From the NCBI GenBank assembly GCA_019118935.1, contig DWXY01000023.1, positions 11,356-75,355 of the forward strand: a DNA stretch of 64,000 nucleotides. Direction: 5' to 3'. This DNA comes from Candidatus Oscillibacter pullicola. Lineage in GTDB: Bacteria; Bacillota; Clostridia; Oscillospirales; Oscillospiraceae. The position numbers were made by a program, and so were the translations under genes. Below are positions 13,434 through 38,933 of the stretch, piece after piece. The notes under the pieces were generated by a model that was given only the letters and a program-made list of their open reading frames with translations, searched no databases and was not told where the DNA came from. The first letter of the stretch is position 1. Each line of letters starts with the position of its first letter.

Positions 13434-15065
13434 TTACGTCTCTGAGGCTTCTGTCGTCTCCATCGGTGAGATCCCGGTAAAGAAGTTCCCGCCATCCGAC
13501 AAAGTGAACGTCTCGGACAGGTCCGCGGCGCTCTGGCCGGCTTCTCCGCCGCCGGGGCCGCGGCCGCCTGCGGGCGGTTCCGCGCCGTCAGGTGTGGTCT
13601 CCCCATCCGCCGGGCGCTCCGGGTGGTCCGCCGGGGCCTCTCCGCCAGCGTTCTCCGGCGCCTCGCCCTCCGGGCGCTGGGGGCGCTCTCCCTCCGGAGG
13701 CATCCCGCCCTCCGGCGCCTGCCGGGGATCGAAGTCCGCGGGGGGCTCCCCACCGTCCATGGGCCGTCCGCCGCCGGGGCCGCCCATGCCGTCGGACGCG
13801 CTGCCGGCCAGCTGGGTGTCTCCCTGCCACAGGGTGTAGTCCCCTGCCGTCAGGTCCGGGGAGGACACCACCAGGCAGGTGAAGTCGTTTACCGGCGTCC
13901 AGGTGCCCACGGTCTCCCCGTCGGCGTTTTGCAGGGTATAGGTCTGGCCGCCGCTCTGCCGGGATGCGAAGGAGAACACCACATAGTTCTGGGCCCCGCC
14001 GTCGATTTGGTCATACATATTGCCGGAGGCCGTTACCGTGCCGCCGTTGATGGTGATGCCCATGGTGGCGTCGATGCCCGCGTCCCCGCTGCCGGAGCAG
14101 GCCGCGGCGGTGACAGCGCCGCCGTTGATCACCAGCCAGCCGTTGGAGTCGATGCCGTCGCCTTCGCCGGTCTCGCCGGTGACCTGGATGTTCACGGAGC
14201 CGCCGTTGACGGTGGTGACGGATACGTTGTCCTCATTGGTGTTGATGCCGTCATTGCCGGAGGTGATGTTGATGGTGCCGCCGTTGATGGTGAGGTGCAG
14301 CTCCGTGTCCAGCCCCTCGTTGTCGGCGGTGATGTTCAGCACACCGGTGCCGGCCTCTCCCCCGTCCACATTCATGGACATCTTAGAGTAGAAGGCGCCG
14401 TCGTATTTGTGGAGCTTGTCGCTGTCCTCCACGGTTGTGCCGTCCTCGCTGAGCACCACGCTGTCCGGGTCGTAGATCCGGGCCACATAGGAGCCGGTGA
14501 CGTTGTTGATGGTGCCGTCGGCGATGAGGACATTGGCACCGGCGGCGGAGGTGTCCACGGTCTCCGAGGCGGTGTCCTCGTCCGCGCTGCCGCACTCATA
14601 GACGTTGTAGAAAATCACCGCCGGGGCCACGGTACAGGTGATGTCCACGCCGTTCAGGATCAGCGTCACCACCGCCGCCGGGTCCTCCTCCGCATCCTCC
14701 CCCAGGTCCACGGCGATCTGCCCTGCGGACAGGGTGCCGCTGAGGGCGTAGGTGCCGGGTTGTGTGATGTGGACCACCGTGTGGGCCTCCGCCTCTTCGG
14801 CGGTGTGCTCGTCGGCTTCCGTGCCCTCGCCGTAGGTGAAGTCGCGGCCGGATTCATAGCAGACAATGTCATGGGCCGTGTAGACGGCGGCCGTCTCGTC
14901 CGCGGAGACCGCCTCCCCGTCCACAGTAATGCCGTCGTCCGAGAGGACGATGGAAACAGTATCCGGGAATTCCTGCGCGGCCGTCTCGCGGCCCTGCGCG
15001 CCGCAGCCGGAGAGTGCGGCCGCAGCCACCGCCAGCCCCAGGAAGAGAGAAGCAATTCGTTTCAT
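13434..15065 (-). CDS. Carbohydrate-binding domain lipoprotein (DUF4353/Cthe_2159-like beta-helix)
   Basis: Lipobox LSGC, ITQPGTYALSG, repeated ITINGG/GDGIDSNG strands, G/P/E-rich C-terminal tail. Confidence 0.75.
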   Translation of the reverse strand: MKRIASLFLGLAVAAAALSGCGAQGRETAAQEFPDTVSIVLSDDGITVDGEAVSADETAAVYTAHDIVCYESGRDFTYGEGTEADEHTAEEAEAHTVVHITQPGTYALSGTLSAGQIAVDLGEDAEEDPAAVVTLILNGVDITCTVAPAVIFYNVYECGSADEDTASETVDTSAAGANVLIADGTINNVTGSYVARIYDPDSVVLSEDGTTVEDSDKLHKYDGAFYSKMSMNVDGGEAGTGVLNITADNEGLDTELHLTINGGTINITSGNDGINTNEDNVSVTTVNGGSVNIQVTGETGEGDGIDSNGWLVINGGAVTAAACSGSGDAGIDATMGITINGGTVTASGNMYDQIDGGAQNYVVFSFASRQSGGQTYTLQNADGETVGTWTPVNDFTCLVVSSPDLTAGDYTLWQGDTQLAGSASDGMGGPGGGRPMDGGEPPADFDPRQAPEGGMPPEGERPQRPEGEAPENAGGEAPADHPERPADGETTPDGAEPPAGGRGPGGGEAGQSAADLSETFTLSDGGNFFTGISPMETTEASET

Positions 15066-25585: not shown

Positions 25586-25673
25586 GTGTTCCAACGGATG
25601 GGGGCAGGAGGCAAATCAGGAAATTGAAATCATTTTCGCCACGACAGTGACAGCCCGCTCCCCCTCGAAGGCC

Positions 25674-25752
25674 GCATCAGCCCGGAGGCCACGTCATGTC
25701 TCTGCCGCTCAGTACGTGGAAGTGCAGGTGAAATACGCTCTGCCCCGCCTGC
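25674..25752 (-). repeat. Duplicated 3' end of the HIT gene (direct repeat of 25893-25971)
   Basis: 79 bp, 78/79 identical; encodes [24 protein letters not shown] without a start. Confidence 0.95.
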
Positions 25753-25892
25753 ATTCCCCACCGGGCCGAGCCCGGCGGGGACCCCGGATAAAACTTGAGC
25801 GGGCAGGCATAGCCCGCCCGCTCCAAGGTTTTGCTTCGCAAAACGCTTGCACGCGCGCTCGCGCGCGGCCCCGCTGGGGCCGTGGCTCCCAG
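25753..25892 (-). mobile_element. Short multi-hairpin non-coding element E1 (putative non-autonomous mobile element)
   Basis: Several hairpins; homologous to 37710-37865; lies between 79-bp direct repeats; mobility is inferred. Confidence 0.65.
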
Positions 25893-25895
25893 GCA

Positions 25896-26234
25896 TCAGC
25901 CCGGAGGCCACGTCATGTCTCTGCCGCTCAGTACGTGGAAGTGCAGGTGAAATACGCTCTGTCCCGCCTGCTCGCCGATGTTGGAGACCACCCGGTAGCT
26001 GTCCAGGCCCTTTTCCTTTGTCAGCTTGGCAATGACCTCAAAGATGTGAGCCACCACCATGCTGTTGTCCGCGGTGATCTCGGACACAGAGCCGATATGG
26101 GCCTTGGGCACCACCAGAAAGTGGGTGGGCGCCTGTGGATCAATGTCATTGAAGGCGTAGCACACGTCGTCCTCGTAGACCTTGCTGCTGGGAATCTCCC
26201 CGGCGATGATCTTGCAGAATAGGCAATCGGACAT
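25896..26234 (-). CDS. hinT: Histidine triad nucleotide-binding protein (HIT family)
   Basis: DCLFCKII, DIDPQAPTHFLVVPK, HLHFH triad; AAAGGAGG RBS. Confidence 0.95.
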   Translation of the reverse strand: MSDCLFCKIIAGEIPSSKVYEDDVCYAFNDIDPQAPTHFLVVPKAHIGSVSEITADNSMVVAHIFEVIAKLTKEKGLDSYRVVSNIGEQAGQSVFHLHFHVLSGRDMTWPPG

Positions 26235-27524: not shown

Positions 27525-27676
27525 TGCGCCCCCATTCTCTTTTTGGTTGCGCCAAAAAGAGAATGCGCCGCGCCCGGAGGAAGAGAAAAAGCGCTTTGGC
27601 GCGCTCCGGTGCAGTGGCCCTCCGCGCGACGGGGGTCGGCGGATCGGTGCCTGCTCCGATTTTGCCTGGCCTTCGG
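27525..27676 (+). repeat. Palindromic interspersed repeat copy E3
   Basis: Hairpin CATTCTCTTTTTGG-TTGCG-CCAAAAAGAGAATG plus blocks shared with the reverse complement of 28021-28178. Confidence 0.8.
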
Positions 27677-27812
27677 GCACGCTATAATCTTCTGCCAGGT
27701 CGGTACTGCCGTCCCGTGGCGGATGGTGCTGGCCTCGTCGGGGTGGTCATCGCATTGACCGGCTTCACTTTTCGCTGCCGCTGGCCCGGTGGTTGATGAA
27801 AGCCTCCGCAAA

Positions 27813-27838
27813 GGGCCGATGAGGGCATCGGCCCCTAC
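27813..27838 (-). repeat. GTAG-type REP sequence
   Basis: Minus strand GTAG-GGGCCGATG-CCCT-CATCGGCCC: tetranucleotide plus a perfect 9-bp hairpin. Confidence 0.7.
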
Positions 27839-28020
27839 GGGGACACGGAAGGCTTTCGGTCTTGTTTGATACAAGCTGCTACGACCTCCAGTGCAACGCG
27901 TAGCGAAGCGGAACGCGCGGAAAGAGAAGCTGGTCAAATGCGTTCTTGCAACCCGTTGCCCTCCGCACCCGCGCCGCGGGAATCAGCGTACAAGTCTGTA
28001 CTGCACCCCGCCGCGCCCGT

Positions 28021-28178
28021 CGGAACGCCATCGCAAATCCGCAGGCACCATCTCACGCCGACCCCCGTACAGCGCGGAGGCACGAAGGTGCCGGAGCGCG
28101 ACTAAAGCGTTTTTTCTCTTTGGACCGTGCACGGCCCGTTTCTCTTTTGGCAAGGCCAAAAGAGAAATGGGGGGTGCA
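28021..28178 (-). repeat. Palindromic interspersed repeat copy E4 (inverted relative to E3)
   Basis: Reverse complement shares AAGAGAAAAA-CGCTTT, CGCGCTCCGG, CCTCCGCGC, ACGGGGGTCGGCG and GGTGCCTGC with E3. Confidence 0.8.
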
Positions 28179-31161: not shown

Positions 31162-31944
31162 TCATGGCTCTGTCAAAATCTCCCCCCGGGAGAACAGGGC
31201 CGCGTATCCGGCCAGCCGGACGCGGTCACCCATTCGGCGGCAGTACAGGGTGCCGCCCCGGGGCGAGGCCTGACAGGCCGTCAGCTGGTCCTTTCTCAGC
31301 CGCTCTGCCCAGTAGGGCACGATGTGGCAGTGGCCGGAGCCGCAGACCGGGTCCTCGTCCACCCGGAGCTTGGGGGCGAAGGAGCGGGACACGCAGTCAA
31401 ATTCCCCCTCCCCCGGCGCCGTTACATGGAGCAGCAGGCCCGGCAGATCCAGCGCTTTTCCCAGGTCCGGCCGCAGGGCGGTAACATCCTCTGCCCGGTC
31501 CAGGATGCACAGCAGATCCCGGCCCAGCCAGGCCTCCCGGGGGCGTCGGCCCAGGACGGCGGCCATGTCCTCTGTCACCTCCGTAGGTGCCAGCGCATAA
31601 GCTGGGAAGTCCATGGCCAGGAGACTTCCCTCCCGGGTGACGGTGAGGGGCCCGCTGAGACTCTGGAACGTCACCTGCTCCGCCGCCGGGTCCACAAACT
31701 GGAAGTACACATAGGCGGAGGCCAGAGTGGCGTGACCGCACAGGTCGATCTCCCCGCCGGGGGTGAACCAGCGGATGTGGAGGCCGTCCGCCTCCTGCAC
31801 CACAAAGGCCGTCTCGGAGAGGTTGTTCTCCATGGCGATCCGGCGCATCAGGGCGTCCTCCGGCCAGCGGTCCGGAAAGCACACCGCCGCCGGATTTCCG
31901 GCAAAGACCTCCTCTGTGAAGGCATCCACGATATACTGTCTCAT
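31162..31944 (-). CDS. PhzF family isomerase/epimerase
   Basis: VDAFTEEVFAGNPAAV, ENNLSETAF, LCGHATLA, EDPVCGSGHC. Confidence 0.93.
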   Translation of the reverse strand: MRQYIVDAFTEEVFAGNPAAVCFPDRWPEDALMRRIAMENNLSETAFVVQEADGLHIRWFTPGGEIDLCGHATLASAYVYFQFVDPAAEQVTFQSLSGPLTVTREGSLLAMDFPAYALAPTEVTEDMAAVLGRRPREAWLGRDLLCILDRAEDVTALRPDLGKALDLPGLLLHVTAPGEGEFDCVSRSFAPKLRVDEDPVCGSGHCHIVPYWAERLRKDQLTACQASPRGGTLYCRRMGDRVRLAGYAALFSRGEILTEP

Positions 31945-31969
31945 GTGAGCTCCTCCTGTCTGGTCAAAG

Positions 31970-32190
31970 AAAAACCGCCCCTGACGCACGTCAGGGGCGG
32001 AAGGACTTCCACGGTACCACCCTGATCTGTCCCATGGGGACATCTCATGTCATCCGCTAACGGGGATGGGCCGTCCCGCTCACCGCGGGCCGCTCCAAAG
32101 TGGCTGCTCCGCGGCGTGGGCAAGGGGCTCGCACCGTCTCCCCTCTCGCTTGGCCGGTCTCGCGAAGCTGGCTTTGTCATAGCTTTTCGC
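31970..32190 (-). ncRNA. T-box riboswitch, Ala (GCC specifier)
   Basis: T-box AGGGTGGTACCGTGG (32009-32023); terminator stem 31975-32000 + T-run; stem I CAAAG/CTTTG closing a GAGCA-GCC-A specifier loop (GCC at 32102-32104). Confidence 0.88.
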
Positions 32191-37657: not shown

Positions 37658-37709
37658 ACTTTGTCAACCGGAGGTTGCACCCATTGAGGCGCAATGGATT
37701 GACGGTTTT
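37658..37709 (+). repeat. Direct repeat A (pairs with 37866-37917)
   Basis: ACTTTGYCAACCGGAGGTTGCACCCATTGAGGCGCAATGGAT core 41/42 identical, 48/52 when extended. Confidence 0.9.
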
Positions 37710-37865
37710 GGAAGCCCTTCCCCGGCGGGCCAGCGGTCCGCCCGCCGCTTTTGCGGCGTACAAGTGTTTTGCCGCTGGCGGCGAAACCTTGAGGAGGCCG
37801 GGCTTTGCCTGGCCGACTAAAATCAAATCCGGGGTCCCCGCCGCGCCATCTTGGCGCGGCGGGGC
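37710..37865 (+). mobile_element. Short multi-hairpin non-coding element E2 (same family as E1)
   Basis: Shares GG(G/A)AGCC, GT(G/A)CAAG(C/T)GTTTTGC, AAACCTTG, CGGGCT(A/T)TGCCTG and ATCCGGGGTCCCCGCCG...GGGG with E1; flanked by direct repeats; mobility is inferred. Confidence 0.65.
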
Positions 37866-37922
37866 ACTTTGCCAACCGGAGGTTGCACCCATTGAGGCGC
37901 AATGGATCGGCAGTTTTAGCCT

Positions 37923-38933
37923 TTACCAGATCCCCAGCAGGTGCTGGACTCCCAGGCTGACCAGGGCGATGGCCACCCAGCAGCAGAAGCCCATAAAGAT
38001 GGGCTTGGCACCGCTTTTTACCAGCTTCACGATGTCGGTGTTCAGGCCGATGGCCGCCATGGCCATGACGATGAAGAACTTGCTGGCGTTTTTCAAGAAG
38101 CCCGTGACCGCTCCGGGAATAGGCAGCACCGTGGTGATGATGGAGGCAATCAAAAACAGCAGCACGAACCAGGGGAAGATCTTCTTGATGTCCACCTGTG
38201 CGCCGCCCTGCTTCCCCTCCCGGCGGGTCCGCAGCAGGGCCAGCACCAGGGTGATGGGGATGATGGCCAGGGTCCGGGTCATCTTCACGATGGCGGCAGT
38301 GTCCAGGGTGTTGGCGCCGGGGTGCATCCCGTCCCAGGCGGCAGCCGCCGCGGTGACGGAGGAGGTGTCGTTCACCGCGGTGCCGGCAAAGAGGCCGAAG
38401 CCCTCGTTGGAGAGGCCCAGCACACCTCCCAGGGTGGGGAAGATCAGCGCCGCGATGACGTTGAACAGGAAGATCACAGAGATGGCCTGGGCGATCTCCT
38501 CGTCATCCGCGCCGATCACCGGGGCGGTAGCGGCGATGGCGCTGCCGCCGCAGATAGAGGAGCCCACGCCGATGAGGGTGGAGATGTTGGCGTCCATGCG
38601 CAGGGCCTTGTAGAGCACAAAGGCCACGATCAGGCTGGTGGCGATGGTGGAGACGATGATGGGCAGGGACTGCCCGCCCACCTGGAGGACGCTGCCCAAG
38701 TTCATGCCGAAGCCCAGCAGCACCACCGCCAGCTGCAAAATCTTCTTGGAGGTGTAGGTGATGCCGGACTTGGCTGCCTTCTGGTCTTTCCAGAACAGGG
38801 CGATCACCATGCCGATCAGGATGGCGAACACCGGGCCGCCCACCACCTCGAACCGCTGCCCCAGCAGCCAGGCGGGCACGGCGATCACCAGACAGATCAG
38901 GATGCCCAGGGCGTTTTTTCTGACAAATTCCAT
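37923..38933 (-). CDS. YeiH family putative sulfate exporter membrane protein
   Basis: [33 protein letters not shown]. Confidence 0.9.

Follow-up and report, generated by a model that had tools for sequence, protein, structure and literature searches.

This study concerns the 3' end of hinT in a window of 64,000 nucleotides (nt) from Candidatus Oscillibacter pullicola (contig DWXY01000023.1; positions count from the first letter of this stretch), where a small structured element lies between two copies of the end of the gene. The hinT gene, the target of the element, is intact at 25896-26234 on the minus strand and encodes 112 amino acids from its ATG according to the open reading frame (ORF) list and Pfam, in which its HIT-family product matches HIT/DcpS_C (PF01230/PF11969). 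Its neighbours are comEC, genes for an SLH protein and a DUF4250 protein, and alaS. The end of the coding sequence (CDS) occurs twice, since positions 25674-25752 and 25893-25971 agree at 78 of 79 positions, with a sharp loss of identity at either edge. Direct repeat 1 (DR1, 25893-25971, minus strand) is contiguous with the gene body and holds the last 24 hinT codons, the TGA stop codon (25896-25898) and a further TGC; DR2 (25674-25752, minus strand) is a non-functional hinT end that leads into the native downstream sequence, and the empty allele described below joins sequence of the 25893 type to position 25673. The sole mismatch, 25743 C versus 25962 T on the plus strand, reads GGG on the DR2 side and GGA in the other copy on the coding strand. 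Between DR1 and DR2 lies a non-coding insert of 140 nt (25753-25892), and insert and repeat together form a unit of 219 nt, which is a multiple of three and open in frame. A first-pass annotation of this DNA had already described a 79-bp duplication around a 140-nt hairpin element, with one synonymous difference, an extra copy made up of the last 24 codons and the stop, and neither integrase nor cargo. Our comparison of the repeats in the window bears this description out: both codons encode glycine, the extra copy goes on for 3 nt after the stop, and the multiple hairpins reported for the insert number five on the hinT-sense strand.

All parts of the insert are given here on the minus strand, i.e., in hinT sense. 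Directly after the stop codon it opens with a guide-like 5' segment, x' (GCCTGGGAGCC, 25884-25894), which by eye is complementary, with a central GA/GA mismatch, to the coding-strand segment GGCGAGCAGGC (25966-25976) that spans the upstream edge of DR1. This pairing is weak, as is that of x' with the start of DR2, which yields a closing stem P1 of about 5-6 bp. The end of DR1 is a further pairing partner, for the overlapping stretch CTGGGAGCCACG (25881-25892), and this pairing places the stop codon in a hairpin loop. There follow the variable hairpin P1a (GGCCCC-AGC-GGGGCC, 25867-25881); P2 (GCGCGC-GAG-CGCGCG, 25852-25866), whose sequence varies among copies of the element while its pairs covary (helix 1, compensatory changes in 3/3 pairs); P3 (CAAGCGTTTTGC-GAA-GCAAAACCTTG, 25824-25849), the stem sequence of which is conserved throughout the family and nearly invariant (helix 2, 99.5% paired); and P4 (GAGCGGGCGGGC-TAT-GCCTGCCCGCTC, 25797-25823; helix 3, compensatory changes in 5/6 pairs). 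Together with a TTTTAT T-run, P4 of the hinT copy is terminator-like; a T-run behind P4 or P5 is absent from most members of the family. A linker (25781-25796) ending in the conserved single-stranded motif ATCCGGGGY leads to the terminal hairpin P5 (CCCCGCCGGGC-TCG-GCCCGGTGGGG, 25756-25780; helix 4), which has a conserved G·U pair on this strand, and a 3-nt spacer, AAT (25753-25755), separates P5 from DR2. The insert folds at -108.5 kcal/mol (z -4.6) in hinT sense as compared with -92.5 kcal/mol (z -3.1) for the other strand, and positions 25756-25873 match the covariance model introduced below with 94.5 bits.

Metagenomes provided several alleles of this site (contigs and loci are cited by L-numbers, sequencing runs by X-numbers). 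At least 24 metagenome contigs encode exactly this HinT protein, and downstream of its stop codon they take three forms. The empty allele, in which ...GGGCTGATGC passes directly into GGCCTTCGAGG, occurs in L001, L003 and L005; the one-unit form of the window is present in L004 and L006, with L008-L010 breaking inside DR2; and a two-unit form, with segments of 79, 140, 79, 140 and 79 nt, was found in L002, a MEGAHIT contig assembled at k=141. A further contig, L007, holds one unit plus a low-quality duplicated stretch. The gaps from hinT to the next gene measure 146, 365-366, 524 (L007) and 584 nt. The first-pass annotation had predicted an allele with a single copy followed by native sequence, and L001 provides it in a near-identical background: its flanks agree with the window at 100% over 3.3 kb and at 99.97% over 3.1 kb, and the 219-nt block is absent. 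The data support reading the arrangement as an insertion of 140 nt of foreign sequence together with a 79-nt target duplication. L001, empty at hinT, does carry the second element of the window at 37.7 kb.

Two of these contigs deserve a separate remark. In L002 (3340-3924), the two elements of the two-unit allele differ at about 8 positions, and the allele could have arisen by two insertions or through an unequal crossing-over in which diverged alleles took part. In L007 (900-1250), a low-quality partial duplication of the native downstream region, rich in G/C homopolymers, lies 3' of the hinT element and is probably an assembly error.

The duplication as a whole could in principle be an artefact of this kind, a worry raised already with the first description, as a repeat of 79 nt exceeds common assembly k-mers and L008-L010 break inside it. 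However, the same structure recurs in separate metagenome samples and with two assemblers (SPAdes and MEGAHIT), including the k=141 contig; as independent support we counted the complete unit in L002, L004, L006 and L007 and the break in the second repeat in L008-L010. In addition, Logan unitigs from four chicken-gut DNA runs include a 210-nt unitig that spans the element into both repeats, and a 69-nt repeat unitig has about 2-3x the depth of this element unitig. The copies moreover differ at one base, and RNA contigs cross the joints, so that an artefact can practically be dismissed. The 48 runs (X1-X47) are represented by Logan contigs at k=31, which cannot span a 79-nt repeat.

The hinT element is one member of an undescribed family of elements of about 125-160 nt in gut Oscillospiraceae and their phages, in which scans found more than 20 further sites. 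A pattern scan on the conserved core returned 10 loci in species-representative genomes; in metagenomes, 19 of its 29 matches are family members, and the matches without repeats are mostly due to chance. With a pattern restricted to P3, 17 loci were obtained from a viral collection, nine of which carry family members according to a covariance model built on 21 cores. Carriers comprise Flavonifractor, Pseudoflavonifractor, Ca. Galloscillospira, Ca. Oscillibacter and other Oscillospiraceae. At several loci the model revealed extra, more diverged copies about 1-3 kb from the known ones, which points to a density in the region of one copy every 30 kb. Direct repeats of 32-116 nt, different in sequence and length from site to site, flank almost all copies.

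This last point bears on the origin of the duplication. A duplicated gene 3' end is the classic footprint of an integrase, and att-type integration had been proposed at first sight; the hinT site would then be the remnant of a site-specific integrative element, i.e., an attL/attR scar resembling a cis-mobilizable element (CIME), the interior of which was lost. Yet homologous elements of about 140 nt occur at more than 20 genes, each with a repeat of different sequence and length, which contradicts such a source: as the repeat is different at each gene, it is made from the target each time and not carried as an att site. Relatives likewise have no larger element at hinT, where only alleles with no, one or two units and gaps of 146-584 nt were found, and no integrase is encoded nearby. 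We therefore regard the scar as a most improbable explanation.

Throughout the family the layout is the same in gene sense, consisting of a variable 5' region of 15-60 nt (in some copies with the extra hairpin P1a), P2, P3, P4, ATCCGGGGY, P5, a spacer of 0-5 nt and the second repeat. P3 (CAAGYGTTTTGC-loop-GCAAAACCTTG) is conserved in sequence, as is the motif CCGGGGYCCCC; P4 is a covarying stem with the loop ATTCAYT or CTNTG, and P5 has the form CCCCGCCNNNC-loop-GNNNGGYGGGG. In the alignment, 96.2% of the cells are paired and 12 of 30 pairs are changed on both sides; none of 500 shuffles reached any of the measures, and slid controls fell to 40-55% paired. G·U pairs occupy 26 cells (one P5 pair is G·U in 14 of 21 copies), as opposed to two cells for A·C, which a structure on the other strand would need. 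This excess indicates that the fold works on the gene-sense strand, be it as RNA or as that single strand of DNA.

Contigs from two chicken-gut metatranscriptomes extend from hinT across the element to a point 40-50 nt inside DR2, at a depth equal to or above that of hinT, and there is no coverage further downstream. Two ideas on a coding or decoding role were discarded. Translation through the units is at odds with the lengths of other units (208, 221 and 263 nt), which are not multiples of three, and an anticodon-like UCA within the 7-nt P4 loop AUUCAYU that would read the stop codon does not fit, as the loop type does not track the stop-codon type.

Searches for known relatives or partners returned nothing. 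Rfam (Rfam 15, E<=1; the window region and seven loci) gave no match on the element, including group II intron and IS605-related families, ARAGORN detected no transfer RNA (tRNA) or tmRNA on it, and the literature searched contained no description of the family. In about 450 kb of family loci there is neither a transposase nor an autonomous insertion sequence (IS) beside the copies. Clustering of ORFs near the copies gave, as the only cross-site cluster, paralogous aminoacyl-tRNA synthetases, which are themselves targets, and the phage ORF clusters near copies are structural genes.

Several further loci illustrate the range of forms. In L017 (1414-1535 and 2403-2530) and L035 (7428-7549 and 8417-8543), two consecutive genes of a microcompartment operon each have an element with its own repeat after the stop codon. 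Members without repeats lie in phage intergenic regions in L060 (4894-5018 and 8595-8719) and L054 (4533-4662), immediately ahead of the ribosome-binding site and the beginning of the next gene, which in L054 looks like a small terminase subunit gene. L043 (550-884; see also L039, 13927-14043) has two adjacent relatives with a different 3' module and no flanking repeats; each has its own strong intrinsic terminator, and five clustered tRNA genes lie next to them. These relatives may be small-RNA genes in their own right, akin to the mobile copies. In runs X1, X2 and X25, unitigs contain the exact 31-nt P3 hairpin of the window (25824-25854) with other P2 and P4 flanks and represent another, mosaic family member in the community. 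In three soil metagenome loci (L026, L036 and L038), an unrelated conserved motif, TTGTTACACAGAATTCACATTGGCGAAACACGTGTAAAACCTTGAC..., ends in a CCGGGGYCCCCGCC motif and a hairpin like the 3' module of the element, and reaches only 27-33 bits in the covariance model.

The window holds a second family member at about 37.7 kb, found by BLAST of the hinT element against the window. It lies on the plus strand and consists of a 52-nt first repeat (37658-37709), an element of 156 nt (37710-37865; core at 37737-37864, 95.5 bits) and a second repeat (37866-37917), with 48 of 52 positions identical between the repeats. The second repeat ends 5 nt from the stop codon of a PF03601 membrane-protein gene (37923-38933, minus strand), with which the element is convergent; it sits between two minus-strand genes, this one and that of an HTH_3 regulator, antisense to both. 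RNA contigs cover part of it, and an empty allele was looked for and not found. Beyond these two copies, the covariance model detected no members in the 64-kb window, a weak match at 31882-32000 being only a terminator hairpin.

How the sites might be chosen is suggested by the variable 5' region. It contains a stretch of 11-19 nt, located within 0-15 nt of the stop codon (32 nt in L028), that is complementary to the coding strand in the region where repeat 1 begins. The complementary spans straddle this start, typically from about -5 to about +8, the medians being about 5 nt upstream of it and about 8 nt within the duplicated stretch. The 3' joint lies 32-116 nt upstream in the CDS, and that stretch occurs twice. 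Clear examples are L017 (GGCGCAGGCGGCGTG in the element and CACGCCGCCTGCGCC in the target, 15 nt), L031 (GGCCCTTGACGAC and GTCGTCAAGGGCC, 13 nt), L037 (GATCGTGTTCTTTT and AAAAGAACACGATC, 14 nt) and L069 (GCGTGATCGTGTTCTTTTT and AAAAAGAACACGATCACGC), where all 19 nt pair perfectly. Over 12 independent sites, the alignment score of element with own target was 20.9, compared with 10.3 (sd 2.3) for mismatched pairs of element and target (p<5e-6; 0 of 200,000 permutations reached the self score), and control windows within the same loci gave 10.6 and 11.6. After insertion, the duplicated-side half of the segment pairs with the first 6-12 nt of repeat 2 to form the closing stem P1, for which a simpler, independent exact-match test gave p<1e-5. 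These exact-match and alignment permutation tests were used because an energy-based duplex test of the 5' region against the repeat ends was too noisy in GC-rich sequence. Between L069 and L044, one compensatory change keeps the pairing of segment and target. Snap-back copying past the segment was rejected, as the bases that follow do not match the complement of the pre-repeat sequence, except weakly at hinT.

The other joint follows a different rule. At 15 independent gene-end sites, a long co-directional ORF ends at the end of repeat 1, and the element is oriented like the upstream gene in all 15. The targets are hinT, ileS, leuS, fhs, ilvN, two microcompartment genes, mutL, nifU/iscU, terL, tsf, era, an ABC permease gene, a phage portal-like gene and one unknown gene. 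When the joint of repeat 1 and element was compared with that of repeat 2 and native downstream sequence to set the insertion point, the element was found to start 0-2 nt past an in-frame stop codon at 12 of the 15 sites, with TGA, TAG and TAA all in use. Counted from the last base of the stop codon, the offset is 0 at eight sites, +1 at two and +2 at two, the latter values being what chance identity of the next base or two leads one to expect; at L069 it is -2 (TTTT/AG versus native TTTT/GA, the stroke marking the joint). The joints have no sequence motif and no hairpin in common. As for a second guide, the element compared with the junction of stop codon and downstream sequence scored at background (12.0 versus 12.2), i.e., it is neither complementary nor similar to it. 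A 'TRA' target motif combined with selection was likewise rejected as the cause, since no non-stop joint is preceded by TRA. Nor could we explain the joint by selection alone, which needs it only to fall somewhere past the stop codon, and young copies are already biased. As only translation reads the frame, we propose a translated mRNA as the target.

Repeats of this length would also be compatible with a conventional DNA transposon derivative, a MITE (miniature inverted-repeat transposable element) mobilised by a DDE transposase whose cuts are widely staggered as in IS1634 and IS1549. The repeats of these two elements measure 8-514 bp and vary from copy to copy (PMC2266710), a range that includes the 32-116 nt observed here. 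A transposon of this kind is nevertheless improbable: there are no conserved terminal inverted repeats, the first 15-60 nt differ at each site and their sole inverted match is the local target, the elements are gene-oriented at all 15 gene ends with G·U pairs specific to one strand, the 5' joint is tied to the reading frame, and no transposase lies beside any copy examined.

The history of the sites raises the question of a function for the host. The closest relatives of a copy are those that occupy its site in other species (0.90 for the window and L019 at hinT, 0.75-0.95 at other sites), whereas between sites the similarity of copies is no more than 0.65-0.75 and some mosaicism is seen; each site thus has its own old element lineage, common to several species. 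At hinT, the same element occupies the same position in another species (L019 and L048) with 90% identity. Within a genome, however, the two repeats are 95-99% identical, as against differences of 10-25% between species for the same repeats, and lineage-specific variants are common to both, which points to gene conversion between the repeats or to repeated loss and re-insertion. The near identity of the hinT repeats had been taken as a sign of a recent event; this is unsafe, as the element is also present in another species and the repeats evolve in concert, so that their identity gives no date. Among phages, 79 of 80 related terL genes in IMG/VR have no element and only the query locus carries it, from which it follows that the element is derived there. 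In the related phage L067, a copy with a perfect 54/54 repeat lies at a different gene.

The persistence of the same element at orthologous sites across species and the compensatory changes could accordingly reflect a host RNA module of the 3' untranslated region (UTR), e.g., one that couples mRNA stability or termination to translation, which spread rarely, with repeats kept for the closing stem and a mobility that is ancient and incidental. The element is co-transcribed with hinT, and its 5' segment abuts the stop codon and can pair with the CDS or with repeat 2 in an attenuator-like manner. A G-to-A substitution that L019 and L048 have in repeat 2 only improves the pairing with the 5' segment and extends the stem. 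Such a module would, however, need only the first 6-12 nt of repeat 2 for its stem, yet 32-116 nt are duplicated; the targets are functionally unrelated (hinT, leuS, ileS, mutL, fhs, terL, era and others); one species can include genomes with and without the element; 79 of 80 related phages do without it; and there are copies with perfect repeats off stop positions, like the one of L067. As a full explanation we hold this to be unlikely, although a host 3'-UTR function may still exist in addition to mobility.

Taken together, we lean, if only slightly, towards the view that the 79-bp duplication is a target-site duplication produced by the entry of a 140-nt structured non-coding element, which is non-autonomous, RNA-like and chooses its target by base pairing. 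A number of observations speak against this view. Near-identical copies were not seen at two different sites, so that mobility is read from the distribution, and long persistence at orthologous sites together with structural constraint would fit a host-beneficial 3'-UTR RNA as well. In the loci examined, no mobilising enzyme was found near the copies, and copies without flanking repeats exist (L060, L054, L059 and L043). The 5' joint is off the stop codon at L067 (-21, before the native stop), L057 (+12) and L014 (+76), and neither the copy at 37.7 kb nor that of L028 lies at a co-directional gene end; L028 and L034 are at the 5' end of an antisense gene. The hinT copy itself pairs weakly (GCCTGgGAGCC versus GGCGAGCAGGC, score 10, i.e., background), and so do the 37.7-kb copy and L014; the hinT orthologue in L019 pairs better, at 9 of 11 positions. 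Furthermore, the segment may have pre-existed as a guide or may have been copied from the target at insertion. The RNA contigs carry no information on strand or direction. Finally, 'empty' contigs from short-k assemblies (k-mers <79) could be collapsed cycles; this is less likely, and the empty allele may also have arisen by deletion between the repeats.

If the element is indeed mobile, the mechanism might be as follows. The element would act as RNA, or as the gene-sense single strand, with an enzyme supplied in trans; its 5' segment would select the target by base pairing, like a guide, and its 3' end would be joined inside the duplex of guide and target. The position of the 3' joint is fairly constant (median, about 5 bp from the duplex end nearest the element), which suggests that it is the folded body that brings its own 3' end to the target strand in the duplex. 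From the 5' joint at the end of the reading frame we infer a step linked to the mRNA or the ribosome and hence a reverse-transcribed intermediate. In such a scheme, guided cleavage and joining at the paired site would be followed by ribosome-linked cleavage at the stop codons of donor and target transcripts, end-joining to an RNA of unit length, cDNA synthesis, and Campbell-type recombination into the gene end, which would also yield tandem units. Gene conversion could afterwards keep the repeats alike, and recombination between them could give rise to the empty and two-unit alleles. More specifically, the family could be a bacterial non-autonomous, RNA-guided element in which the 11-19-nt segment sets one joint and the end of translation the other, with mRNA as the target and a return by reverse transcription and recombination, i.e., a re-programmable, SINE-like element (SINE, short interspersed nuclear element) homing to gene 3' ends. 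This detailed version is put forward tentatively, and we consider it possible rather than probable.

Should the segment direct insertion, a compact and re-programmable system of about 140 nt would be at hand that puts sequence at a selected position downstream of a gene and leaves the gene unharmed, and the family would be a mobile element of a kind so far undescribed in bacteria. If the tie of one joint to the stop codon holds, we know of no earlier case in which the reading frame rather than the DNA sequence sets the insertion point, and this tie makes a link between translation and genome change directly testable. On a more modest reading, the elements constitute a novel family of structured RNAs located in the 3' UTRs of housekeeping genes (hinT, leuS, ileS, mutL, tsf and era) of abundant gut bacteria. 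The family also explains one class of assembly breaks and length polymorphisms at gene ends.

Two other features of the window were noted in passing. In the gap of about 750 nt between alaS and the next gene (27533-28178), two inverted modules of about 110 nt (27533-27641 versus 28000-28178) show 75-94% complementarity and delimit about 650 nt, which may be another non-coding insert. A hairpin CATTCTCTTTTTGG/CCAAAAAGAGAATG is present in either module, and the gap is of constant length in related contigs. At 13545-14526, degenerate periodic repeats of 78-81 nt (GTGCCGCCGTTGATG...) within a long ORF probably encode a repeat-containing protein.

Among known systems, integrative elements and CIMEs resemble the hinT site in that a gene end is duplicated and the gene left intact. 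Their repeat, however, is a carried att site and the same in all members, whereas the repeats of our family are made from each target. Diversity-generating retroelements likewise have a copy of a gene 3' end beside a structured RNA of about 140 nt, and hairpins after the end of the target gene. No reverse transcriptase or avd gene is present among the called genes from about 3 kb upstream to 3 kb downstream of hinT. Differences between the repeats are not adenine-specific (G/A, C/T and others), the element lies between the repeats, and empty alleles exist, all of which sets the family apart from these retroelements.

Small mobile or repetitive sequences offer closer parallels. IS1634 and IS1549 also generate target direct repeats of tens to hundreds of bp and of variable length (PMC2266710). 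They are, however, 1.5-2 kb long, encode a DDE transposase and have terminal inverted repeats, as opposed to an element of 140 nt without conserved ends or transposase, with a fixed orientation relative to the gene and a segment complementary to the target. Prokaryotic MITEs and terminator-like repeats (REP/BIME, RUP, SPRITE and Correia) are small, hairpin-rich and multi-copy, often lie downstream of genes and are co-transcribed (PMC10969869). In all these respects, and in being non-coding, the element is like them. It has neither the terminal inverted repeats that run through a whole MITE family nor the short, fixed-length duplications of MITEs, and it differs from REP-type repeats in that these come without a duplication. 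We know of no MITE or REP-type repeat reported with target-complementary sequence or abutting stop codons.

Target choice by base pairing is familiar from group II introns (via exon- and intron-binding sequences, EBS/IBS), the guides of IS200/IS605 and the bridge RNA of IS110. Our family shares with them a short internal stretch complementary to the target around the joining point, so that specificity could be re-programmed by mutation. In contrast, those systems encode their own enzyme and make no long duplication, and in our family the pairing marks one of two joints. Domain V/VI RNA of group II introns had no Rfam match (E<=1) in the window region or the seven loci. With regard to IS200/IS605-type derivatives (palindrome-associated transposable elements, PATEs), hairpins, strand asymmetry and target complementarity are present in our family, but no IS605-related RNA family was matched, and the long duplications and the lack of a common motif at either joint disagree with this type.

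With clear reservations as to enzyme and intermediate, we rate the family as lying outside the known kinds of mobile element. A last parallel comes from eukaryotic SINEs and long interspersed nuclear elements (LINEs), where target-primed reverse transcription mobilises a non-autonomous structured RNA in trans and leaves target duplications of variable length. To our knowledge, no system of the SINE/LINE type is known in bacteria. Compared with its eukaryotic counterparts, the element family described here makes longer duplications, and one of its two joints tracks the stop codon.

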